From a virus (taxonomy: Duplodnaviria; Heunggongvirae; Uroviricota; Caudoviricetes), in the IMG/VR virus record IMGVR_UViG_2526164598_000016: a stretch of DNA of 40,941 nt; one strand, 5' to 3'. Every line of letters begins with the position of its first letter. The stretch's first letter is position 1. A program made the position numbers and the translations under genes. Below the pieces are notes generated by a model, which had not been told where the DNA came from, ran no database searches, and saw only the letters and a program-made list of their open reading frames with translations. Positions 4,362-19,087 of the stretch are shown piece by piece.

Positions 4362-4927
4362 TATCGCGTCCTCAACAATGAATTTTGTGATGCGGTGCCT
4401 GGTGCCTCCAGGTGACGTTAACCAGTTAACAATTAACGCCGGATACAGAGAATCCACCCATAACACTGTTTTTGGTTTTAACTGTTCCGCGTGCGCTCAG
4501 CCGCATTCACCACATCACAAAATTCACTTTAAAAAGGGCGGCAGAGCAGTCACGGAGTAAAACTGATACCGCCAAACGTCACCAGAAAATTGATAACAGA
4601 GGGCGTTGCAGCGGGGTTGTCACTTAAGCGTATGGTCAACCTGACAACCCGGTGTCCTCAACGGGGGAAGGAATAACCCCGCCATACTTACCGCCGCGCC
4701 ATTTCGCGGATTGCCACAACCGGAAGCGCACGGTCGACGAAAATTTAACGACAGGCTATCTATGAACCAGCTACCTCGCCGTGCGCTTTCGCGTTATGGT
4801 CTGACTTTTCAGGGAAATATCCTTTCAGTAAACTGTCAGTGCCGGATTCTTATCCGTGTCCGGCGCACGACCACACGCTGTCACGAGAGGTCTCCATTCT
4901 CAACCAGTAACCTCAATGGAGGATAAA

Positions 4928-7589: not shown

Positions 7590-7611
7590 AAGCACGGTGT
7601 TCGGGGGTTTT

Positions 7612-8574
7612 ATGAGCAGCAAACTTCATGGTCTTGTCTGGGAAGGGTGCGCCTTCACCGGCATGATCTTATCCAGGGTGGCGGTTATGGCCCGTCTTGC
7701 AGACTACAGCAATGACGAGGGTGTGTCATGGCCTGCCATTGAAACTATCCGGCGTCAGATCGGTGCAAGAAGTGAATCCACAGTGAAATCGGCTATTGCA
7801 GAACTGGCGAAAGAGGGCTGGCTGACGAAGGAAGAGCGTAAGGTCGGTGGGCGTAATGTAAGCAATATCTATCGGCTTAATGTGGAAAAACTCGAAGCAG
7901 CTGCGGCGGCGGCGCGTGAGTCATATAAACCGAAAAGAAAAATTAGCCCGGCAAAAAATGACCCGTTAACAGTTGACCCGTCAAATATTGACCCCTCAAC
8001 GGTTGACCCGTCAAATTTTGATGGATCAACTGTTGATAAAAAACTGCCGATTAGGGGGGCGATGATTGACCCCGATCCGTCAGTATTAAAACCTGATCCG
8101 TCAGATAAAAGATCTTCTTGTCCGGACGCTTCGCAACCGGACCCGCAGACGGCTGAACAGGATTTTTTAACCCGACACCCTGACGCGGTTGTGTTCAGTG
8201 CGAAAAAACGCCAGTGGGGAAGTCAGGAAGATTTGGTGTGCGCACAGTGGATCTGGGGACGAATCGTGAGTCTTTACGAGCAGGCGGCCAGCTATGATGG
8301 CGAGATCACTAGACCGAAAGAACCCAACTGGACAGCATGGGCCAATGACGTTCGCACAATGCGGATGCTGGATGGCAGAACTCACAGACAAATTTGTGAA
8401 ATGTTTGGGCGTCTCCAGCGGGATTCGTTCTGGGTAAAAAACATCATGAGTCCGGCAAAACTCCGGGAAAAATGGGATGAACTGGTTATCCGCCTGGGGC
8501 GTTCGCCTGCGCAGCGTTGCGTGAATCACATTTCTGAACCGGACACTGAAATTCCGCCGGGCTTCAGGGGGTAA
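7612..8574 (+). CDS. Replication initiation protein (O-like; N-terminal HTH, iterons inside the gene)
   Basis: ATG at 7612 with GGGGG SD (the ORF track begins at a GTG at 7597); N-terminal winged-helix-like region; embedded iteron array encodes the DPSxVDPSN peptide repeats. Confidence 0.7.
   Translation: MSSKLHGLVWEGCAFTGMILSRVAVMARLADYSNDEGVSWPAIETIRRQIGARSESTVKSAIAELAKEGWLTKEERKVGGRNVSNIYRLNVEKLEAAAAAARESYKPKRKISPAKNDPLTVDPSNIDPSTVDPSNFDGSTVDKKLPIRGAMIDPDPSVLKPDPSDKRSSCPDASQPDPQTAEQDFLTRHPDAVVFSAKKRQWGSQEDLVCAQWIWGRIVSLYEQAASYDGEITRPKEPNWTAWANDVRTMRMLDGRTHRQICEMFGRLQRDSFWVKNIMSPAKLREKWDELVIRLGRSPAQRCVNHISEPDTEIPPGFRG
7958..8020 (+). repeat. Iteron array (about 15-bp period, TGACCCGTCAA core), candidate replication origin
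   Basis: TGACCCGTTAACAGT / TGACCCGTCAAATAT / TGACCCCTCAACGGT / TGACCCGTCAAATTT in tandem, with degenerate copies following. Confidence 0.55.
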
Positions 8575-8614: not shown

Positions 8615-9037
8615 GTGGCAAAAGTTTTTACACAAGAAGAGCGGGAAAAAATTAAAGGGCTGATCGTGGAATTCGTACGCCTTAACGGACGAGGCACGAT
8701 TCGGCAGTTATCGGATGAAATTGGTGTCAGTCATGCGTCTGTCGGTCGTTTATGCATGGAGCTGGCCGCCAGTGGTGATGTTTACAATTCCGGTTACGGA
8801 GTATTCCCGTCTGAGCAGGCGCGCAAGGACTGGCAAAACGCCCGCAAAAAACTCTCAAGGGCAAAGCTGAAGAAACCATCTGTGGTTGATCCGGACCTTA
8901 TCTGGCTATTACCAGACGGCGAAATACGCCGCTACGACAGGCGTCAGAACATAATCTGTCGCGAGTGCCGGAAGAGCGAAGTTATGCAGCGCATATTGTC
9001 GTTTTATCAGGGTAATTTTCAGGAGGTAGCGCAGTGA
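8615..9037 (+). CDS. Hypothetical protein with probable HTH (140 aa)
   Basis: GTG start preceded by GGTAATTTTCAGGAGG; …IRQLSDEIGVSHASVGRL… HTH-like segment. Confidence 0.55.
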   Translation: MAKVFTQEEREKIKGLIVEFVRLNGRGTIRQLSDEIGVSHASVGRLCMELAASGDVYNSGYGVFPSEQARKDWQNARKKLSRAKLKKPSVVDPDLIWLLPDGEIRRYDRRQNIICRECRKSEVMQRILSFYQGNFQEVAQ

Positions 9038-9528
9038 GTGCACCGGCAACCATTCTTGATATGTGCTGTGGCAGCCGCATGTTCTGGTTCGATAAGAATG
9101 ACGACCGGGCGATATTTAGCGATATCAGAAAGGAAGAGCACACATTATGTGATGGACGAAGACTGATAATTAGCCCTGACCTGATAGCAGATTTTCGTGC
9201 ATTACCATTTGCAGACGCATCGTTTCCGGTGGTTGTATTCGACCCTCCGCATCTTGAGCGTGTTGGTGATAACGCCTGGATGGGAAAGAAATATGGACGG
9301 CTGAATAAAGATACCTGGCGTGATGATTTGCGGCAGGGATTTAAAGAAGCCTTTCGTGTGTTGCGGCCATACAGCGTTCTGATTTTTAAATGGAATGAAA
9401 CGCAAATACCTGTTCGCCAGATATTGGCACTGACCGACAGAAAGCCTGTTATCGGTCAACGAACAGGAAAGGGTGACAAGACCCACTGGATTATTTTTAT
9501 GAAGGAGGCGACCAGTGAGCAAGATTGA
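9034..9528 (+). CDS. Small phage DNA methyltransferase (SAM-binding motif I-like LDMCCGS, catalytic DPPH)
   Basis: 164-aa ORF with …ILDMCCGSRMFWF… and …VVVFDPPHL…; GTG start after the second copy of GGTAATTTTCAGGAGG. Confidence 0.65.
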   Translation: MSAPATILDMCCGSRMFWFDKNDDRAIFSDIRKEEHTLCDGRRLIISPDLIADFRALPFADASFPVVVFDPPHLERVGDNAWMGKKYGRLNKDTWRDDLRQGFKEAFRVLRPYSVLIFKWNETQIPVRQILALTDRKPVIGQRTGKGDKTHWIIFMKEATSEQD

Positions 9529-9697
9529 CTATCAAGAACTGCGCGAGGCGGCGGAACAGGCAACGCAAGATGAATGGGTAGCATATATTTTGCCGGGTCA
9601 TAACGCATTTATCCTGCGCGCACGTCTGAGGGTAGGCATTGCGGATACTTTATTGACTGGCCTGGCGTCTGTCAGGGGCGGGAGAGCATCAACATGA
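9515..9697 (+). CDS. Small protein with Ea22/Ead-like N-terminus (MSKIDYQELREAAE…)
   Basis: GTG start after GGAGG; N-terminus is paralogous to the starts of the genes at 10197 and 11622. Confidence 0.4.
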   Translation: MSKIDYQELREAAEQATQDEWVAYILPGHNAFILRARLRVGIADTLLTGLASVRGGRAST

Positions 9698-10200
9698 GCA
9701 TCAGAACCTACGCAGTGAATTGCAATGACGCATGGCTAAACACCGAAGGTGATGACATCTCCGGCTCATACGTTAAGTACAAAGACCATCAGGAAGTGGT
9801 TGCCGCTCTTGAGGCCAAGTGCGCGGCGCTGACAGCGGAGAATGCGGGAATAAAGTCTGCAATTCCAGAATCACGGGATATTGAGGATGACAATGACAAT
9901 ATGGATGACGTATCTCTCGCGGAAGACTTCGGGTTCAATCATGCAATAGAACGGATGAGGAGACAGATACCTGAAACGCCAACCACTGATGCTTTCCTGG
10001 CTGAAGTCCGGGCGCAGGGGGTGGATGCTGCTATAGAAGCTGCAAAAAATCTGGTGGCCCAAGAATATGAGTATAAGGATTTCAAAGCGGCGCAGAGTGA
10101 TTGCTGTATGCACCCTGGTTCAGACCTGGTAGGGAAGGTTGAAATGACTGAGTGGTTAGTTGACTTTGCTGCCCAGCTTCGCAAAGGAGGCAACCAGTGA
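9694..10200 (+). CDS. Hypothetical phage protein (168 aa)
   Basis: ATGA-coupled ORF. Confidence 0.55.
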   Translation: MSIRTYAVNCNDAWLNTEGDDISGSYVKYKDHQEVVAALEAKCAALTAENAGIKSAIPESRDIEDDNDNMDDVSLAEDFGFNHAIERMRRQIPETPTTDAFLAEVRAQGVDAAIEAAKNLVAQEYEYKDFKAAQSDCCMHPGSDLVGKVEMTEWLVDFAAQLRKGGNQ

Positions 10201-10844
10201 GCGAAATTAATTACCAGTCACTGCGTGAGGTGGCGGAACGTGCAATTCCAGCAATGGAACGCCTGTTAATGTTGCCAGCTGATGATGATTTGTTAAGTGA
10301 ACAGGAACTTAAAGATTACGGTGTGGATATTGATGCGCTCAATGCCTTCAAATTTCTGACCGGACCAGAAACCGTGCTGGCACTACTGGACGAACGGGAA
10401 AGAAACCAGCAATACATCAAACGCCGCGACCAGGAGAACGAGGATATTGCACTAACGGTTGGGAAACTGCGTGTTGAGCTGGAAGCCGCAGAGAAGCGCA
10501 ACGCAAAATTACAAAGCGAGAATGCATACATCCGCAACCGGTTCAAAGAGCTGGACCTGTTAATCGGGAAAAACATTCTGGTCATGCAGGCTGCGATTAT
10601 CGAATGGCAGGCAACTGGCGACGCTAAAAGCGGACTGGCATGGATTTATAACACACTGTTTGGCCTAGGCGAATTGCCGGACGAATCTGAGAAAGATGCT
10701 CAGGCCTACTTTAATCGCAAATATGCACCGATTGACGAAAAGCTCATGGAGCTTCACAAGTGGTTTTGGGAACAAAGTGAAGCCGAGCGCGCCGCTGGCA
10801 TTCGCATCAAAGGAGAGGAGCATGGAAATAAAACCAGAGGATGA
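10197..10844 (+). CDS. Ead/Ea22-like coiled-coil protein (215 aa)
   Basis: Starts MSEINYQSLREVAERA…; central coiled-coil-like region. Confidence 0.55.
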   Translation: MSEINYQSLREVAERAIPAMERLLMLPADDDLLSEQELKDYGVDIDALNAFKFLTGPETVLALLDERERNQQYIKRRDQENEDIALTVGKLRVELEAAEKRNAKLQSENAYIRNRFKELDLLIGKNILVMQAAIIEWQATGDAKSGLAWIYNTLFGLGELPDESEKDAQAYFNRKYAPIDEKLMELHKWFWEQSEAERAAGIRIKGEEHGNKTRG

Positions 10845-11178
10845 GTTAAGCAATATCGTTTTATTTCCGGTAAAAGAGGATGACCCTCGTAATCAGGTTA
10901 ATTTTCTTTATGAGCCATCGGAAAGACCATATTGCCATCACGCCTCTGTTCGGGTTGACGAAAAAGAGCGTCAGGTCCGCTGTAAAATCTGCGGTGCAGT
11001 TGTGGAGCCGTTTGACTGGATGCTCTCTGTGGCGAAAAGAGAAACCAGACTGGCAGATGATGTAAGGCTATTGCGCCAGGAGGAACAGGAAAGGCGGAAA
11101 AATATAGAAAAGTTAATTCAGATTGAGCGTAACGCAAAAGCGCGGATATGCAGGGCGACAAAATCCAGAACTGAATAA
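10822..11178 (+). CDS. Hypothetical protein with CxxC zinc-ribbon-like motif (118 aa)
   Basis: Internal ATG at 10822 with AAAGGAGAGGAG SD; …VRCKICGAVVEPF…. Confidence 0.5.
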   Translation: MEIKPEDELSNIVLFPVKEDDPRNQVNFLYEPSERPYCHHASVRVDEKERQVRCKICGAVVEPFDWMLSVAKRETRLADDVRLLRQEEQERRKNIEKLIQIERNAKARICRATKSRTE

Positions 11179-11273
11179 TTAAATTTAGCACTGTAAATAA
11201 AATCAAATCCTTAACCGGAGGGATTTCTGCACCCTCAGAACATCAGGAGGCCGTCCGAAAGGGCGGTAGTGAA

Positions 11274-11456
11274 ATGCGAAAATTCAAAATAATTATTGAA
11301 ACGGGAATAGCCGGTGGAGATTTCGAGGATGAATTCGAAGTGGATGATGATGCAACACCAGATGAAATACAGGATGAAGCTAAAGATATTTTCTTTAACT
11401 ACTGCAATTACTCATACCACGAAATAAAAGACGAAGAGGAAGAACAAAATGGCTGA
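11274..11456 (+). CDS. Small acidic hypothetical protein
   Basis: 60-aa ORF, very acidic. Confidence 0.4.
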   Translation: MRKFKIIIETGIAGGDFEDEFEVDDDATPDEIQDEAKDIFFNYCNYSYHEIKDEEEEQNG

Positions 11457-11625
11457 TTTTGGTTCAACTAAATATAACGCCAGTTTTGAAGAATGGCATG
11501 AACTGTTAATGGATTATGCAGAGTTACGCGGTGGAAGTGCCGCTGATGCTGAAGCATGGCGTGATGATTATGAAGCAGGGAAAACACCGGTCGAAGCATA
11601 TTGTGATGAGTGGGGCGATGAATGA
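11449..11625 (+). CDS. Small hypothetical protein (58 aa, not in ORF track)
   Basis: Hand-translated MADFGSTKYNASFEEWHELL…; overlapping start/stop with both neighbours. Confidence 0.4.
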   Translation: MADFGSTKYNASFEEWHELLMDYAELRGGSAADAEAWRDDYEAGKTPVEAYCDEWGDE

Positions 11626-11981
11626 GCGAGATTAATTATCAGGAAGGGCATGAAAAGGCAGGGCAGGCAAAACCAGTGGCATGGCGATATCGCTACGTGA
11701 AAAAAGGCGTTACAGACTTTCAGGGGAAGCAGTGGGTTGGTGACTGGAAATATGTCCCGACAAAAGAGGATTGCAACGACAGACCGAACTATGAAATTCA
11801 GGCGTTATTCACTGCCCCGCCTGTGCCACTGACACCAGAAGGATTGATTAAAGCAGTGCGTTTCTATGAACAGGTAAAGCGTGAGAATCCGCCAGTCGAA
11901 ACCGGAGCATGGAAAGACGCTGTTGACTGGGTGCTCAAAGAGGCTTGCCAGTCTGTAAACATTGGCATCAAAGGAGAGTGA
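11622..11981 (+). CDS. Hypothetical protein (119 aa) with MSEINYQ start
   Basis: ATGA-coupled; third gene with the shared N-terminal motif. Confidence 0.55.
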   Translation: MSEINYQEGHEKAGQAKPVAWRYRYVKKGVTDFQGKQWVGDWKYVPTKEDCNDRPNYEIQALFTAPPVPLTPEGLIKAVRFYEQVKRENPPVETGAWKDAVDWVLKEACQSVNIGIKGE

Positions 11982-11982
11982 T

Positions 11983-12246
11983 ATGGCAACTTTGACAAAA
12001 AAAGAACAAGCATGGTTGAGCGAATTACAGGACGTTCTTGATCGCTGTCCATCACCGAAAAAAATTGGTTTTTACACCATTGGCGATAAAAGCATTTACC
12101 TGTATGACCTGCGCCGCATGGATGAAATCATGGAGGCTCTTGATAATCGTTCGTCGATGGATTGGTGTGTTGCTGTTCATGATATGAATGCAGGGTTTGA
12201 TGAAAAGATTTTGTTCCCCTCATCAGTTGAAAGCACTGCGGGTTAA
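11983..12246 (+). CDS. Hypothetical protein (87 aa)
   Basis: ATG at 11983 with AAGGAGAG SD. Confidence 0.5.
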   Translation: MATLTKKEQAWLSELQDVLDRCPSPKKIGFYTIGDKSIYLYDLRRMDEIMEALDNRSSMDWCVAVHDMNAGFDEKILFPSSVESTAG

Positions 12247-12256
12247 GGAGTAACAC

Positions 12257-12424
12257 ATGACCACTATTACCAAAGAACGTATTGAATTGTTCATTAAAAA
12301 TCCGGTTGAAAACGGGCTTACCCGTGGTGAACAAATGGAACTGGCACGGATTGCGCTGGCATCGCTGGAAGCAGAGCCGGTTGTGTTCTGGTTTGAAAAA
12401 TATCAAGAAGGGGCTACGGCATGA
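12257..12424 (+). CDS. Small hypothetical protein (55 aa), paralogue of the next gene
   Basis: [12 protein letters not shown]…ALASLEAEP…; shares the start and the ALxSLxAEP motif with the 12421 gene. Confidence 0.45.
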
Positions 12425-12765
12425 CGACTTTTACCAGAGAGCAGTTAATAGCTCACGCAGAGGAGACTATTGAAGCACAGAGACTGTGCATACCGGGCAC
12501 AATCGACCATGACATCATCCGCACATATAAGATGGATATTGCTGTTCTGGAAATCGCACTGGTATCGCTGGCAGCAGAGCCAGCCGGTAAATTGCATGAA
12601 TACAAACCAGTGGGATATCAGCGTCTGGTCGATGAGTTAACCATGCTGGTAAAGCAGTTAACCTGGCAACTGAGGAAAGCGAAGCCAGACTGCAAATTAC
12701 CGGATAAGGCGATGAGTTATCTGGAGCGGAACGGACTGATAAGCGTGGAGGATATTTTACGATGA
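12421..12765 (+). CDS. Hypothetical protein (114 aa)
   Basis: [14 protein letters not shown]…ALVSLAAEP…; ATGA-coupled. Confidence 0.55.
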
Positions 12766-12842
12766 CCTGGCCTGAAGCATTAACAACGGTAGGAATTGCG
12801 ATGGCGGTGGCGCTGGTGGTGTATTCGATTTGCCGCTGGGGA
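12762..12842 (+). CDS. Possible 26-aa hydrophobic peptide
   Basis: [31 protein letters not shown]-coupled to the previous gene; very short, speculative. Confidence 0.25.
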
Positions 12843-12879
12843 TAAAAACGGTTTGCGGTAAAGCGAGAGTTAAGTAGAA

Positions 12880-13056
12880 TTGCTGCGGGTGCTTGAGGCT
12901 ATCTGCCTCAGGCATGAACACCAAAAGGCAGATAGAGAAAAGCCCCAGTTAACATTACGCGTCCTGCAAGACGCTTAACATTAATCTGAGGCCCAATCTA
13001 TGTCTCACAAATGTAGGTTAGCCTCTTACGTGCCGAAAGGCAAGGAGAAGCAGGCT
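12880..13056 (-). ncRNA. Candidate hok leader with antisense (sok-like) regulatory region
   Basis: Leader has complementary elements CTATCTGCC / GGCAGATAG and a TGAGGC…GCCTCA hairpin upstream of hok, as in hok/sok loci; antisense promoter not pinpointed. Confidence 0.3.
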
Positions 13057-13212
13057 ATGAAGCAGCAAAAGGCGATGCTAATCGCCCTGATCGTCATCTG
13101 TTTAACCGTCATGGTGACGGCACTGGTAACGAGGAAAGACCTCTGCGAGGTACGAATCCGAACCGGCCAGACGGAGGTCGCTGTCTTCACAGCTTACGAA
13201 CCTGAGGAGTAA
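13057..13212 (+). CDS. hok: Hok/Gef-family type I toxin (51 aa)
   Basis: MKQQKAMLIALIVICLTVMVTALVTRKDLCEVRIRTGQTEVAVFTAYEPEE matches the Hok family (TM helix, …TRK.LCE.R…EV.AF.AYE…). Confidence 0.8.
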   Translation: MKQQKAMLIALIVICLTVMVTALVTRKDLCEVRIRTGQTEVAVFTAYEPEE

Positions 13213-13282
13213 GAGACCCGGCGGGGGAGAAATCCCTCGCCACCGCTGATGTGTCAGGCATCCTCAACGCACCCGCACTTAA

Positions 13283-13308
13283 CCCGCTTCGGCGGGTTTT
13301 GTTTTTTC
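13283..13308 (+). terminator. Rho-independent terminator downstream of hok
   Basis: CCCGCTTCGGCGGG hairpin followed by TTTTGTTTTTT. Confidence 0.5.
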
Positions 13309-13379
13309 CTGGCATTCTGGTTTACAATTCGCACACCAGCCTGAACAACTGGCACCTGCTGCGCCAGCAGAGACAACCG

Positions 13380-13658
13380 ATGGCGCACGATACCAAATTA
13401 CACAATTCTGATAATTCAGCCGTCTTTGCCAGCAGGCGCGGACGGTGTTTTCACGCATTCAAATCTGACTGGTACCAGCATCCCCCATGCACTGAAGAAC
13501 AGGCCGAATGGCTCATTCAGTGTTACCGCAGGCGCGGATACGAGGTTAAAAAAGCCCTTAACCTCGACTACCGTCACTGGATAATCTCCGTCAGGCTTCC
13601 TTACTCTGAACGCCCACCGCGTCCGTCCCGCACATTCCAGCAACGCATCTGGAGGTAA
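13380..13658 (+). CDS. Hypothetical nin-region protein (92 aa)
   Basis: ORF truncated to the first ATG downstream of the terminator; weak SD. Confidence 0.45.
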   Translation: MAHDTKLHNSDNSAVFASRRGRCFHAFKSDWYQHPPCTEEQAEWLIQCYRRRGYEVKKALNLDYRHWIISVRLPYSERPPRPSRTFQQRIWR

Positions 13659-13659
13659 C

Positions 13660-14052
13660 GTGCGGGTATTACTTCGACCTGTTCTGGTACCGGAACTCGG
13701 GCTGGTGATCGTTAAGCCGGGCCGTGAATCCATGCCGGTATTCCACAATACCCGGGTACTGGTGGAGCCGGAACCGAAAAGCATGCGTAATCTGCCGTCC
13801 GGGGTCGTTCCTGCCGTTCGCCAGCCGCTGGCGGAGGATAAATCATTACTGCCATTTTTCAGCGACGAACGAGTGATTCGTGCTGCTGGTGGCGCTGGCG
13901 CATTGTCTGACTGGTTACTGCGCCATGTTAAATCCTGCCAGTGGCCACACGGCGATTATCACCACAGTGAAACCGTCATTCACCGTTATGGTACCGGCGC
14001 AATGGTGTTGTGCTGGCACTGCGACAACCAGTTGCGTGACCAGACCTCCTAA
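13660..14052 (+). CDS. Hypothetical nin-region protein with Cys/His cluster (…CQWPHGDYHH…CWHCDNQ…)
   Basis: 130-aa ORF, GTG start abutting the previous stop. Confidence 0.45.
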   Translation: MRVLLRPVLVPELGLVIVKPGRESMPVFHNTRVLVEPEPKSMRNLPSGVVPAVRQPLAEDKSLLPFFSDERVIRAAGGAGALSDWLLRHVKSCQWPHGDYHHSETVIHRYGTGAMVLCWHCDNQLRDQTS

Positions 14053-14091
14053 TCACTTGAGCAACTTGCTCACCAAAACCTGTCAGCATGG

Positions 14092-14709
14092 ATGATTGAC
14101 GTCATTCGTCACGCAATGAATGGCACACAGGAGCGTGAATTATCGCTGGCTGAATTATCCTGGTGGGCGGCCTGCAATCAGGTGGTGGATGCACTACCTG
14201 AGGCAGTAGCGCGTCGTTCGCTGGGATTACCAGCGGAAAAAATCCGCTCCGTATACCGTGAGAGTGACATCGTACCGGGAGAACAGACAGCCATCAGCAT
14301 ACTGAAGCAGCGCACAAAAAATATTGCGCTGCCACTTCACGTCCACCAGCAACAAAATCCACCACAGGAAAAGACGGTGGTCAGCATTGCCGTTGATCCG
14401 GAGTCTCCGGAATCCTTCATGAAACGACCTAAACGTCGCCGCTGGGTTAACGAGAAATACACGCGCTGGGTGAAGACACAGCCGTGTGCGTGTTGTGGTA
14501 AGCCAGCCGACGATCCCCATCACCTGATTGGTCATGGTCAGGGCGGAATGGGGACAAAATCTCACGATATTTTCACGCTACCGCTGTGTCGGGAGCATCA
14601 CAACGAGCTTCATGCGGATCCGCTGGCGTTCGAAGAAAAGCATGGCTCTCAGGTTGATTTAATTTTTCGTTTTCTTGATCACGCCTTTGCAACCGGCGTG
14701 CTCGGGTAA
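14092..14709 (+). CDS. DUF968-like protein with HNH-type motif (…CACCGKPADDPHHLIGHG…CREHHNELH…)
   Basis: 205-aa ORF upstream of rusA; family assignment from memory. Confidence 0.55.
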   Translation: MIDVIRHAMNGTQERELSLAELSWWAACNQVVDALPEAVARRSLGLPAEKIRSVYRESDIVPGEQTAISILKQRTKNIALPLHVHQQQNPPQEKTVVSIAVDPESPESFMKRPKRRRWVNEKYTRWVKTQPCACCGKPADDPHHLIGHGQGGMGTKSHDIFTLPLCREHHNELHADPLAFEEKHGSQVDLIFRFLDHAFATGVLG

Positions 14710-14721
14710 AAGAGGTTACTG

Positions 14722-15096
14722 ATGCGTATAGAGTTTGTTTTGCCTTACCCGCCGACGGTGAACACCTACTGGCGACGTCGTGGCAGCACATATTTTGTAT
14801 CAAAAGCCGGTGAGCGTTATCGCCGGGCTGTGGCGCTTATTGTTCGCCAGCAGCGGCTGAAATTAAGCCTGTCCGGAAGGCTGGCGATAAAGATTATTGC
14901 CGAGCCACCGGATAAGCGCCGCCGTGACCTGGACAATATTCTGAAAGCGCCGCTGGATGCGCTGACGCATGCGGGGTTGCTAATGGACGATGAGCAGTTT
15001 GATGAAATCAATATCGTTCGTGCTCAGCCAGTATCTGGTGGACGTCTGGGGGTGAAGATTTACCCCATAATGCTTGCAGGGCAGGTCAAAAAATGA
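14722..15096 (+). CDS. rusA: Holliday junction resolvase RusA
   Basis: MRIEFVLPYPPTVNTYW…RDLDNILKAPLDALTHAGLL.DDEQ…; characteristic RusA sequence. Confidence 0.9.
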   Translation: MRIEFVLPYPPTVNTYWRRRGSTYFVSKAGERYRRAVALIVRQQRLKLSLSGRLAIKIIAEPPDKRRRDLDNILKAPLDALTHAGLLMDDEQFDEINIVRAQPVSGGRLGVKIYPIMLAGQVKK

Positions 15097-15914
15097 AACT
15101 GGAAGATTTACCGAAATACTACTCCCCAAAATCCCCCGGCCTGACTGATGCATCGGCCTCAACGTCGAAAGATGCGCTGAGTATCACTGATGTGATGGCC
15201 GCGCAGGGCATGACACAGAATCGGGCTGAGATGGGGTTTTCTGCGTTCCTTGGGAAAATGGGCATTAGTATGAATGACAGAGAGCGGGCAACAGAATTGC
15301 TGACAGAATATGCACTCAGTCGGTGTGATCGCGTGGCGGCGTTAAGAAAACTCCCGGCAGAAATAAAACCGGTAGTGATGCGCATTATGGCTTCGTACGC
15401 TTTTGAGGATTATGCCCGTAGCGCAGCGAGTAAAAAGCAGTGCCCTTGTTGCTATGGGGAAAAATTTATTGAAAGCGTAGTTTTTACAAACAAGGTCCAG
15501 TATCCGGATGGTAAGCCGCCGGTATGGGCAAAGTGTACGAAAGGTGTGTATCCGTCTTACTGGGAAGAATGGAAAAAAGTCAGGGAGGTGGTAAAAGTTG
15601 CCTGTCCGGAGTGTGGCGGAAAGGGTGAGGTTTCCACCGCCTGTAAGGATTGCCGTGGGCGTGGTGTCGCCATTCATCGTGAAGAGTCGGTAAAACGTGG
15701 TATGCCTGTTATCAGAGACTGCCAGCGTTGTGGTGGTCGTGGCTGTGAAAGACTACCATCAACGGAGGCATTTAATGCCATATGCGAAGTGACGAGTGCT
15801 ATCACGCTTGATACGTGGAAAAAATCAGTGAAACGCTTTTACGATACGTTGGTGGTTCGGTTTGACATTGAAGAGGCATGGGCGGAGCGGCAGTTAAAGA
15901 GGGTAACGCGATAG
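15093..15914 (+). CDS. Q: Late-gene antiterminator Q (zinc-finger type)
   Basis: 273-aa ORF with CPCC…CPECGGKG…CKDCRGRG…CQRCGGRG Cys clusters, directly upstream of a PR'-like promoter and terminator. Confidence 0.8.
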   Translation: MKLEDLPKYYSPKSPGLTDASASTSKDALSITDVMAAQGMTQNRAEMGFSAFLGKMGISMNDRERATELLTEYALSRCDRVAALRKLPAEIKPVVMRIMASYAFEDYARSAASKKQCPCCYGEKFIESVVFTNKVQYPDGKPPVWAKCTKGVYPSYWEEWKKVREVVKVACPECGGKGEVSTACKDCRGRGVAIHREESVKRGMPVIRDCQRCGGRGCERLPSTEAFNAICEVTSAITLDTWKKSVKRFYDTLVVRFDIEEAWAERQLKRVTR

Positions 15915-15919
15915 TGTTG

Positions 15920-15947
15920 TTGATTTTTCCCGAATCTGTGGTAAATT
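15920..15947 (+). promoter_or_regulatory. Late promoter PR' (-35 TTGATT, 16-nt spacer, -10 TAAATT; qut region follows)
   Basis: TTGATTTTTCCCGAATCTGTGGTAAATTTGCTCTAACGATGGG closely resembles the lambda PR' -10/initial transcribed region (recalled). Confidence 0.6.
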
Positions 15948-15993
15948 TGCTCTAACGATGGGCGTTTTATGCCTGACGTTAGAAGATTTTTTA

Positions 15994-16018
15994 CACCCCG
16001 CCGCCTGGCGGGTTTTTT
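15994..16018 (+). terminator. tR'-like intrinsic terminator
   Basis: CCCGCC-GCCT-GGCGGG hairpin followed by TTTTTT. Confidence 0.6.
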
Positions 16019-16140
16019 ATGACTGAAATCGCGTCAGTACAGTAAACGCGCTGGTGGCGGTGAATACCTGTCTTTCAGCTTGCTGGCTTTTTCGACAAGA
16101 GTTATTGGTGTGTCACGTTAACCGGAAAAGGGAAAAAGAC

Positions 16141-16338
16141 ATGCTAAAACAGCAGGATATGACAGAAACCGCCAGAGTAGTGTTTAATGAATTAAGCGTT
16201 ACCGAACCGGCGACAGTCGGGGAGATAGCGCAGAATACTTACCTTTCACGCGAACGCTGCCAGTTAATACTGGCCCAGCTGGTTATGGCGGGTCTGGCAG
16301 ACTATCAGTTCGGTTGTTACAGACGCCTTCCGCAGTGA
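16141..16338 (+). CDS. Small winged-helix-like DNA-binding protein (66 aa)
   Basis: Internal ATG with AAAGGGAAAAAG upstream; …TVGEIAQNTYLSRERCQLILAQLVMAGL… HTH-like. Confidence 0.45.
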   Translation: MLKQQDMTETARVVFNELSVTEPATVGEIAQNTYLSRERCQLILAQLVMAGLADYQFGCYRRLPQ

Positions 16339-16348
16339 AGGCTTTTTT
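16325..16348 (+). terminator. Second intrinsic terminator, overlapping the small gene stop
   Basis: GCCTTC-CGCAGT-GAAGGC followed by TTTTTT. Confidence 0.5.
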
Positions 16349-16488
16349 ATTTGTGGTAAATGGGCGGCTGGTGGGTGTTAGGGGCACCCACCAGCCATCT
16401 GCTCATGCGTTGGGTTCACAAGCAAACCTCAGGCCCACTGCTTTGCGCAAAAGCAGAATGAGCCTATCAGAGACAGGCTTAATGATCC

Positions 16489-17538
16489 ATGCTTAATACT
16501 GTAAAAATATCCAGTTGTGAGTTAATCAACGCCGACTGCCTGGAATTTATCCGGTCGTTACCCGAAAATTCTGTTGACCTGATAGTCACGGACCCGCCGT
16601 ACTTTAAAGTGAAGCCTGAGGGCTGGGATAACCAGTGGAAGGGCGACGATGATTACCTGAAGTGGCTGGACCAGTGTCTGGCGCAGTTCTGGCGGGTGCT
16701 GAAACCTGCCGGAAGTCTTTACCTGTTCTGTGGTCATCGCCTGGCATCTGATATCGAAATCATGATGCGTGAACGCTTCAGTGTGCTGAACCATATTATC
16801 TGGGCGAAGCCGTCCGGACGCTGGAACGGATGCAACAAGGAAAGCCTGCGGGCGTATTTCCCCGCCACAGAGCGCATTCTGTTCGCGGAACATTATCAGG
16901 GGCCGTATCGTCCGAAAGATGCCGGGTATGCGGCGAAGGGCAGTGCACTGAAACAGCATGTGATGGCCCCGCTGATTTCTTACTTTCGTGATGCGCGCGT
17001 GGCCCTGGGGATAACGGCAAAACAGATTGCAGATGCCACAGGAAAGAAAAACATGGTGTCGCACTGGTTCAGTGCCAGTCAGTGGCAGCTACCGAACGAA
17101 AGCGATTATCTGAAATTACAGTCGCTGTTTGCCCGGGTGGCAGAAGAGAAACATCAGCGCGGTGAACTGGAAAAGCCCCACCACCAGCTGGTGGATACGT
17201 ATACGTCACTGAACCGGCAGTATGTGGAGCTGCAGAGTGAATATAAGCATCTGCGGCGGTATTTTGGTGTGACGGCGCAGGTGCCGTACACGGATGTGTG
17301 GACACATAAACCGGTGCAGTTCTATCCCGGGAAACATCCGTGCGAAAAACCGGCAGAAATGCTGCAGCAGATAATCAGCGCAAGCAGTCGTCCGGGTGAC
17401 CTGGTTGCAGATTTTTTTATGGGCTCAGGTTCAACGGTAAAAGCTGCACTGGCGCTCGGGCGTCGTGCGATTGGCGTTGAACTGGAGACCGGACGTTTTG
17501 AGCAGACAGTCAGGGAAGTTCAGGATTTAATCGTTTGA
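16489..17538 (+). CDS. DNA methyltransferase, beta-class N6A/N4C type (DPPY before the C-terminal FxGSGS motif)
   Basis: …LIVTDPPYF… near the N-terminus and …DFFMGSGST… near the C-terminus (permuted motif order). Confidence 0.85.
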   Translation: MLNTVKISSCELINADCLEFIRSLPENSVDLIVTDPPYFKVKPEGWDNQWKGDDDYLKWLDQCLAQFWRVLKPAGSLYLFCGHRLASDIEIMMRERFSVLNHIIWAKPSGRWNGCNKESLRAYFPATERILFAEHYQGPYRPKDAGYAAKGSALKQHVMAPLISYFRDARVALGITAKQIADATGKKNMVSHWFSASQWQLPNESDYLKLQSLFARVAEEKHQRGELEKPHHQLVDTYTSLNRQYVELQSEYKHLRRYFGVTAQVPYTDVWTHKPVQFYPGKHPCEKPAEMLQQIISASSRPGDLVADFFMGSGSTVKAALALGRRAIGVELETGRFEQTVREVQDLIV

Positions 17539-17587
17539 AACGGATGAGATTGCAGAATTAATTACGCACCATTATTATTCTGCTTCC

Positions 17588-17663
17588 GGCCCTTTAGCTC
17601 AGTGGTGAGAGCGAGCGACTCATAATCGCCAGGTCGCTGGTTCAAATCCAGCAAGGGCCACCA
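17588..17663 (+). tRNA. tRNA with CAT anticodon (Ile2/Met-type; ileZ-like of Stx phages)
   Basis: Cloverleaf by hand: acceptor stem GGCCCTT/AAGGGCC, anticodon loop CTCATAA, encoded CCA end. Confidence 0.85.
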
Positions 17664-17763
17664 TCACAAACCGCCATTAGCTTATCAGGAAGAGCAGACG
17701 ACACGATAACAGGGTTGTTGGTGCGGGGGCGGGTCCCCGATGGCGGTCCATTATCGGTATTCA

Positions 17764-17840
17764 GCGTTGTTAGCTCAGCCGGACAGAGCAATTGCCTTCT
17801 AAGCAATCGGTCACTGGTTCGAATCCAGTACAGCGCGCCA
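17764..17840 (+). tRNA. tRNA-Arg (anticodon TCT)
   Basis: Acceptor stem GCGTTGT/ACAGCGC, anticodon loop CTTCTAA, encoded CCA end. Confidence 0.85.
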
Positions 17841-17947
17841 TATTCATTCTTCCAGATTCCTTTCGGCAGAGCCTTATACTGAAATATACCTGGCTCAGGA
17901 TATTGTTGAAAATATTATATGTTTGTCAAAAATAAAAGTTCTGTTAA

Positions 17948-18304
17948 GTGTTGATTGAGTGTTTGTTATACGGTCTAATGGTTTTTTCAGCATTAAATAT
18001 TTATCATTCATATGGTGTGGGTAGAGTGAATATTGATGAGGCGTCGGGGTGTTTCATCCTTAGGCAGCGTATTGATATAGTCAATGCAGAACGAGCAAAG
18101 GCCTTCAGCCGTTTGACAGTTTTGTTCTGTACTCCTGATCGTCTTTCGGGAAGAGACGTTATTATTCTGAATAGTGATGCTATACAGAGGGTTTGCGATG
18201 AGTTCATGGTGGCTAATTCAGAATTATTTGCTCTTGTTCAGGAGTACAACAGAATAGCCAGGACCTGTGGTATGGATGAACTTCGGATTACTCATCTGGG
18301 GTAG
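17948..18304 (+). CDS. Hypothetical ORF in the cargo slot (118 codons from GTG; alternative ATG at 17978)
   Basis: Open frame only; no convincing SD; unknown product. Confidence 0.3.
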   Translation: MLIECLLYGLMVFSALNIYHSYGVGRVNIDEASGCFILRQRIDIVNAERAKAFSRLTVLFCTPDRLSGRDVIILNSDAIQRVCDEFMVANSELFALVQEYNRIARTCGMDELRITHLG

Positions 18305-18696
18305 ATACATATCTGGATTATCACCGGTTACGGTAAAAAGTGATTGCTTACTGTTTTTGTGAATGGCATTGCAGCAGCCGGATAATGTCAGTGCTGGCTG
18401 ACGGTGTGCTGGTGGCGGGTGTGGTGGTTGCTGCTTTCCCGTTGCTGAAAAAGAAAACGCCAGACTGTTAGCCGGGTATCAGTTAGCGGGAGAAATTTTT
18501 AAATACTTCACAATTCAGGCGGTTGACTGTTGTCTGGTTTGCGGGGAGTTTGTTAAAAGAAACTGGCATGGTGAATCCCCCTGTGCGGAGGGGCAATCAG
18601 CGAGTAGGTATATGGGATAATCGCGGATTCAGGTGCTGGTACTGAATTCACCGGGAGGCACCCGGCACCATGCAATGGCACATAGCGCCACTCTCC

Positions 18697-18731
18697 AGCC
18701 CCTCTCCGGAGGGGCTGTTTATATTGATTTT
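18697..18731 (+). terminator. Hairpin plus T-rich tract (plus-strand terminator-like) inside the cargo slot
   Basis: AGCCCCTC-TCCG-GAGGGGCT followed by GTTTATATTGATTTT. Confidence 0.45.
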
Positions 18732-18760
18732 GTCAGATGTGAGTAAACTCCTTATGGACT

Positions 18761-19087
18761 TTATTGTTTTAGCCCATAAGGACATATTTGCAGAGTGCAA
18801 CGGTTATTAAAGCATTCATTCAATACGTTATCTGTATTTGTAGGGCATTCCTGGCTGTTTTTGATTAAATTCCAGAATGTTTTATTGAATGGTACTACGT
18901 TGTAAATGGTTACAGGTAGCACTTTGTTATTGAGCATGATGCCTGTGTGAGTCAGTGTAAATATACTTTCAGGAGGTAAGAAAGCATCCGATTGATACCA
19001 GATTATTAATTTTATTTTACTCCATATGACTGAAAAAGATATTCCGCATGATGGCTGGATAACTGTATCAATCACAATCCACTTCAT
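18761..19087 (-). CDS. Hypothetical Cys-containing protein (108 aa) in the cargo slot, opposite orientation to late genes
   Basis: ATG preceded by AAGGA at 7-nt spacing (reverse-complement reading); AT-rich codon usage; four Cys in the C-terminal third. Confidence 0.35.

Follow-up and report, generated by a model that had tools for sequence, protein, structure and literature searches.

The prototype of the hok/mok/sok loci is that of plasmid R1, where hok/sok serves in post-segregational killing and plasmid stabilisation. The nascent R1 chain carries a metastable 5′ hairpin; in the closed form a 5′-3′ stem between tac and fbi shuts the full-length mRNA and ucb lies over the mok Shine-Dalgarno (SD) sequence, and after 3′ processing the open form, with its tac/ucb and mok-SD/dcb stems, is translatable (PMC9841398). 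Translation of mok matters for this system and the product of mok does not (PMC9841398). The Stx2 phages 933W (AF125520) and Sp5 (VT2-Sakai) carry hokW/mokW/sokW. HokW is a toxin that sokW, transcribed from its own promoter, neutralises; mutations in the −10 of sokW abolish this protection, and the sokW RNA is visible on northern blots (PMC8621323). In the presence of hokW-sokW, lysis is accelerated and phage release doubled after mitomycin C (PMC8621323). A survey preprint reported that hok is enriched in prophages, and that the chromosomal loci hokA, hokB and hokC are unable to mediate post-segregational killing (10.1101/2025.08.07.668861). Loci of this type are already published, as are their folding pathway, their occurrence in lambdoid prophages and their enrichment among prophages.

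A locus of this kind was analysed in a 40,941-nt stretch of viral DNA (Caudoviricetes; IMG/VR record IMGVR_UViG_2526164598_000016), called the window in what follows. Very probably it is an intact, functional hokD-type hok/mok/sok type I toxin-antitoxin module, located in the nin-equivalent region of a lambdoid prophage. Every element of such a module is present in the window, in the arrangement of the described systems, with the predicted pairings and with conservation among relatives. The original prediction, made from the letters of the DNA alone, had named a Hok-type locus here; all the features it listed were found at or beside the places it gave, the sole shift being a candidate hok promoter (12853-12880) that lies just 5′ of the start it had assigned. 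The locus is real but ordinary, because most E. coli genomes carry it and because the 93%-identical hokW-sokW has been tested experimentally.

The window locus shares with plasmid R1 the gene set, each of the folding pairings and a 70-aa mok (PMC9841398). The R1 Hok protein and the HokW-type toxins have only about 44% identity (PMC8621323), and R1 is a plasmid post-segregational killing system while the window copy is prophage-borne. The loci of 933W and Sp5 are nearer, with 93% nucleotide identity to window positions 12860-13284, a 51-aa Hok and an in-frame 70-aa mok; tac, ucb, dcb, fbi and the Sok hairpin are likewise shared. They differ from the window at many positions around the mok start, in the target loop and in the 5′ tail of Sok; in addition, 933W has no homologous terminator after fbi, and its hokW, at 58.4 kb of 61.7 kb, is close to the right end of the phage genome, whereas the window copy is in the nin region. 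Nucleotide identities of 95-97% are reached by a group made up of a Rac-type prophage with annotated mok and hok (MN652886, 95%) and the lambdoid phages mEp460, Evi, Tritos and HannyBb. As in the window, these copies are nin-equivalent, lie upstream of rem/ydfU-type genes and Q, and have the same terminator, but they differ in the mok-start hairpin and in the sequence of the Sok tail.

The toxin gene, hok, occupies 13057-13212 on the plus strand and encodes 51 amino acids (MKQQKAMLIALIVICLTVMVTALVTRKDLCEVRIRTGQTEVAVFTAYEPEE). A Pfam search matched this product to HOK_GEF (PF01848) with 82.6 bits (E 1.4e-23) against a cut-off of 22 bits, covering profile positions 1-42 entirely, so that the predicted 51-aa Hok/Gef membrane toxin was confirmed as a small (about 50 aa), single-helix member of that family. 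It is of the HokD type, as its RefSeq homologues are named hokD and 50 of its 51 residues are those of HokD of E. coli K-12, the exception being Met19 (ATG) where K-12 has Ile19 (ATA). Apart from that codon, the two genes differ by one synonymous change. The Hok protein, the 3′ untranslated region (UTR) and the ydfU/Q-type setting all place the gene in the hokD (relF) orthologue group of lambdoid prophages. An AAGGAG Shine-Dalgarno sequence (13042-13047, plus strand) stands 9 nt 5′ of ATG 13057 and is paired in the full-length fold of the mRNA. As a separate observation, the Tyr47 codon of hok and the G that follows (13195-13198) read UACG, and a second UACGAA occurs at 13151-13156, across Val32/Arg33. 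The survey preprint reports TadA A-to-I editing of hokD mRNA, which recodes Tyr to a Cys needed for a disulfide (10.1101/2025.08.07.668861); the UACG motif is present in the window hok.

Upstream of hok, the leader was compared with the Rfam families, a check proposed with the original prediction. A cmscan of the whole window found RF01794 over its full length (model positions 1-157) at 12887-13062, with 121.7 bits and E 2e-27 against a gathering cut-off of 59 bits, but on the hok-sense strand. Among 13 loci scored this was the highest value; the 12 others, intact loci from Escherichia, Kluyvera, Photorhabdus, Pantoea, Pseudocitrobacter and Citrobacter, match on the same hok-sense strand and with the same end at the hok ATG, while truncated hokD copies of the K-12 type have no RF01794 match. 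The RF01794 consensus is that of an open hok leader, with the tac/ucb stem, the Sok-target hairpin, the mok-SD/dcb stem and a small hairpin just 5′ of the hok SD. The family, named "sok antitoxin (CssrC)", therefore models the leader of the hok mRNA rather than the antisense Sok. Taking its match for a detection of the antitoxin was accordingly rejected, as it lies on the plus strand, spans 157 positions and ends at the hok ATG everywhere; because of this strand and this end, it supports the leader structure and not the antisense RNA directly.

The folding of the mRNA was then considered over the putative full-length mok-hok transcript (12887-13307, plus strand), whose ends are placed from G12887 to the T-run of the terminator. 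The predicted fold of these 421 nt has −170 kcal/mol and z = −6.8, and none of 100 shuffled sequences equalled it. Together with the end-to-end RF01794 match, this bears out the structured leader of the original prediction. Its long-range complementary elements were likewise recovered. They are tac, the translational activator (GGGUGCUUGAGG, 12887-12898), and fbi, the fold-back inhibitory element (CCUCAA(C)GCACCC, 13262-13274), both on the plus strand; in the full-length fold, tac (nt 1-12) forms 12 pairs with fbi, each with a probability of 0.92-1.00. In this closed form, the GCCCC of ucb (anti-SD, AAGCCCC, 12940-12946), at 12942-12946, lies on the mok SD at 12988-12991, and the hok SD is paired too. 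Folded by themselves, nucleotides 1-145 take precisely the open form, in which AAGCCCC of ucb pairs with tac, the GAGGC of the mok SD pairs with dcb (GCCUC, 13021-13025, invariant in 13 leaders), and a mok-start hairpin at 12995-13019 presents the loop CUCACAA (13004-13010), the target of the Sok 5′ tail. The first 30 nt are predicted to form a metastable hairpin of −19.6 kcal/mol in which tac pairs with 12905-12915. The alternative pairings that characterise these loci are thus found as the closed form in the full-length minimum free energy (MFE) structure, and as the open form in the leader-only MFE structure, the Rfam consensus and the RNAalifold consensus, so that the leader recovers the fold of the family model, a point on which the original prediction had been made to depend.

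These pairings were also followed among relatives. A scan of one genome per species gave 66 Hok-encoding loci, and fbi was searched for with the tac 13-mer against the 3′ UTR. Loci with a tac-like 5′ element also have a sequence complementary to it, which ends 58-70 nt past the hok stop. In 14 distinct tac/fbi combinations from five genera, covariation was observed at position 4 (U-A in eight, C-G in five), at position 12 (G-C in eight, A-U in six) and at position 11 (G-C, A-U or G-U). The RNAalifold consensus of 13 leaders, obtained independently, contains the tac/ucb and SD/dcb helices and also an inner stem in which four pairs are compensated; the first two helices do not vary at all and therefore give no covariation signal. 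Unconstrained duplex folding of the 130-nt upstream flank against the downstream flank was tried as well and dropped, since it returned long uninterpretable duplexes.

Upstream of hok and overlapping it, the ORF list holds a mok-type leader frame of 70 aa at 13000-13212 (plus strand), in frame with hok and arranged as in the annotated mokW. Its ATG at 13000 stands 57 nt (19 codons) 5′ of the hok start. A GAGG Shine-Dalgarno sequence of its own (12988-12991, plus strand) lies 8 nt 5′ of that ATG and is invariant in 13 leaders. The overlapping mok with its own SD, about 57 nt 5′ of hok, is thus in place, and the in-frame upstream extension of the original prediction corresponds to the 70-aa ORF. 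That prediction had also called the arrangement a hallmark of hok/sok loci; the hok/sok organisation is indeed present, but the in-frame mok is no part of the hallmark. In 36 relatives the mok start is kept at 56-58 nt 5′ of hok, with 24 in frame, nine in the +1 and three in the +2 frame. The Rac mok, for instance, carries a 1-nt insertion that puts it in the +1 frame with 68 aa, and mok of plasmid R1 is out of frame with hok, unlike the in-frame mok of the window. Because the mok start is conserved while the frame varies, the in-frame relation of mok and hok is incidental, which agrees with the view that only the act of mok translation counts (PMC9841398). A further ORF inside the leader, of 32 aa from a TTG (12880-12978), was treated as spurious because it has no family match and sits within conserved RNA structure.

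The antisense partner is found, at the level of sequence, as a cis-encoded Sok with its promoter inside the leader. The candidate promoter (13015-13043, minus strand) reads TTGCCT (13043-13038), a 17-nt spacer and TAACCT (13020-13015), and the putative RNA of about 71 nt (12938-13008, minus strand) was placed by transferring the sokW misc_RNA of AF125520 through alignment. In 933W the promoter hexamers are the same, and the annotated sokW 5′ end is 7 nt downstream of the −10. In its predicted fold (−29.2 kcal/mol, z −5.3), 14 nt at the 5′ end stay single-stranded as a tail, a long hairpin follows, and the RNA closes with UUUU; by complementarity it would cover ucb, the mok SD and the mok AUG. 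Both a Sok-like promoter and a Sok-like RNA, on which the original prediction had also been staked, can thus be mapped to the minus strand.

A generic promoter scan of 12700-13500 called no sigma-70 promoter on either strand. The scan demands four of six matches per hexamer, and those of Sok match the sigma-70 consensus at only 4/6 and 3/6, under its threshold. The promoter check on the minus strand suggested earlier had therefore a divided outcome: negative in the generic scan, positive in that TTGCCT-17-TAACCT is identical to sokW and that TTGCCT/TTGACC-17/18-TAAYCT is kept in position in 28 distinct loci. Because the hexamers of the family fall under the threshold and yet are positionally conserved, the negative scan was not taken as absence. 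For the mok-hok mRNA, sequence reading gives a candidate promoter at 12853-12880 (plus strand) with TTGCGG (12853-12858), a 16-nt spacer and TAGAAT (12875-12880). In almost all relatives a TAGAAT/TATAAT-like −10 stands exactly 6 nt 5′ of the GGG start, despite unrelated sequence further upstream, and model position 1 of RF01794 aligns at 12887; from this positionally kept −10 we infer the hok promoter. The −35 is weak (3/6 to consensus) and not conserved among relatives. At the other end, the terminator scan found the strong intrinsic terminator that had been predicted downstream (13281-13307, plus strand). It consists of a stem-loop at 13281-13298, with a 7-bp stem and a TTCG loop, followed by TTGTTTTTT, and it is common to K-12 hokD and the Rac copies.

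The genes around hok agree with the nin-like prophage cargo of the original prediction. Upstream lie an O-like replication initiator (7597-8574) and then small ORFs of no known function; downstream follow a YdfU/DUF968-HNH gene, RusA (14722-15096), the antiterminator Q (15093-15914), a DNA methyltransferase and two tRNAs. The prophage is lambdoid and Qin/Rac-like, with hok in its nin-equivalent, early-right region and reading in the same direction as the early-right operon. Several other features of this prophage were observed. Just before the locus, at 12762-12845 (plus strand), an unannotated hydrophobic ORF of 27 aa shares an ATGA with the 114-aa ORF before it, its own ATG overlapping the TGA of the latter; 933W has it too (77% amino-acid identity, positions 1402-1479 of locus L001), as do three other loci, and none of these records annotates it. 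A full-length Rfam match to the DicF antisense sRNA (76.7 bits) at 4536-4587 on the minus strand points to a Qin-like dicBF module in this prophage. The two tRNA genes after the methyltransferase are at 17588-17663 and 17764-17840 (plus strand); the one with anticodon CAT is Met by ARAGORN and tRNA-Ile at the homologous RefSeq locus, and the other is tRNA-Arg(TCT). Downstream of them, at 18537-18726 (plus strand), there is a match to the STnc100 Rfam sRNA family with 132.4 bits.

K-12 hokD (relF) of the Qin cryptic prophage allows a direct comparison. It resembles the window in the hok SD, 3′ UTR, fbi and terminator, and in Qin, too, ydfU/DUF968 and Q follow the gene and the prophage encodes DicF. 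In K-12 MG1655, however, the similarity to the window covers only the part from about 13043, where the hok SD lies, to the terminator, with hok and the 3′ UTR in between; relBE, with the end of relE, stands in place of everything further upstream, namely tac, ucb, the Sok target, the mok start, sok and the Sok −10. The window therefore holds the intact form, and K-12 hokD is a leader-less remnant. The window also gives a picture of K-12 hokD as it stood before truncation, when relBE had not yet taken the place of its leader. The same comparison raises the question of whether the window gene could be a stand-alone toxin in a longer operon, with no antisense RNA of its own, as K-12 hokD is downstream of relBE. 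RefSeq marks only hokD at homologous loci, and the co-orientation of hok with the early-right operon makes read-through transcripts plausible, but this explanation is very hard to sustain when the window has a complete 170-nt leader, a mok start and a Sok promoter, which the K-12 copy lacks along with the Rfam match, and when a conserved −10 and a terminator belong to the locus itself.

The intact module preferred here has also to be set against a locus that is structurally complete but silent, that is, a decaying hok copy which may be transcribed without ever being activated, a state described for several chromosomal loci of the family. In the neighbouring YdfU/DUF968-HNH gene (13660-14709, plus strand), an in-frame TAA at 14050-14052 leaves ORFs of 130 aa and 205 aa in the same frame, where the homologues (K-12 ydfU and that of locus L003) are single genes of about 349 aa, and this hints at prophage decay; the split form may nevertheless be common, since a PHROG family of proteins of about 134 aa matches the N-terminal piece. 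The weak hok −35 points the same way, as does the folding of truncated transcripts: with the mRNA cut short at 13240-13268, the open form is 3-5 kcal/mol less stable than the predicted minimum, and the MFE structure retains a 5′ hairpin of the metastable type and a closed SD. A silent copy is still judged improbable. No element is missing or disrupted, unlike in K-12 hokD, which has nothing upstream of about 13043; the Hok protein is one conservative residue away from HokD, which is toxic when expressed (10.1101/2025.08.07.668861); the regulatory elements match those of hokW-sokW, a functional locus, exactly or almost exactly (PMC8621323); and the Rfam score is the top one of the loci tested. 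As for the folding, this 3-5 kcal/mol gap means that energies alone do not reproduce the switch, and a processing-triggered switch is compatible with the thermodynamic prediction rather than demonstrated by it.

On the reading as an intact module, the molecular mechanism can be proposed with confidence by homology with plasmid R1 hok/sok and hokW/sokW, and it is from these systems that we infer transcription, processing, Sok action and toxicity at the window locus. The promoter with the TAGAAT −10 would give an mRNA of about 420 nt starting at about 12887. In the nascent transcript, the 5′ tac would be held in the metastable hairpin; in the finished transcript, tac would lie on fbi and ucb would cover the mok ribosome-binding site, allowing neither translation nor Sok binding. 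Slow trimming of the 3′ end would strip fbi, after which tac/ucb and mok SD/dcb would pair and the mok-start hairpin would be presented. The short-lived Sok RNA of about 71 nt (13008-12938, minus strand) would pair there through its 5′ tail, blocking mok translation and leading to cleavage of the duplex. Should Sok not be replenished, mok would be translated and the hok start opened, and the 51-aa Hok peptide would insert in the inner membrane and kill or lyse the cell. Candidate roles for the prophage are its stabilisation, help with lysis on induction, as for hokW-sokW, and exclusion of other phages. [quoted passage not shown] Because the window hok is co-oriented with the early-right operon, induction-driven read-through from that operon could extinguish the convergent Sok transcription and so couple the release of Hok to induction.

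The locus is widespread. A match to the 461-nt region at 12860-13320 was found in 79 phage records, in 74 of which it spans 80% of the region or more, and in 4739 of 5426 complete E. coli genomes, at a median of 2 and a maximum of 11 places per genome, with the CDS named hokD. None of these genomes exceeds 98.9% identity, and coverage of window positions 9000-19000 is 92% at most in any record; on both counts, the prophage of the window is a mosaic with no exact representative in those collections. A few records name unexpected hosts. The record "Actinobacillus phage vB_Apl-pPE4" (PP818812.1) has a 99.1%-identical hok locus in an E. coli-type nin region, and contigs of Veillonella parvula, Acinetobacter idrijaensis and Xanthomonas pisi, the latter two very short, encode Hok proteins that are 93-98% identical. 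These four records look like misattributed hosts or assembly contamination and not like distant hosts. At homologous loci RefSeq annotates hokD alone, with neither a mok nor a sok feature. The value of the present analysis for annotation is that the copy is described as complete, with mok, sok and all the RNA elements, compared with the hok CDS alone that RefSeq marks.

One patch of the locus stands out by its variability. Across 14 hokD-type copies that are otherwise almost the same, the mean pairwise difference at 12995-13012, around the mok start, is 0.38, compared with 0.106 for the whole locus, or about 3.6-fold; the mok-start hairpin is retained, with differing stems and loops. One tentative explanation, which we hold to be possible but doubtful, is that the patch is under diversifying selection that makes each Sok specific to its own hok mRNA, limiting cross-talk between co-resident copies. 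If true, the copies that share a genome, two in the median case and up to 11, would not protect against the loss or induction of each other's prophages.
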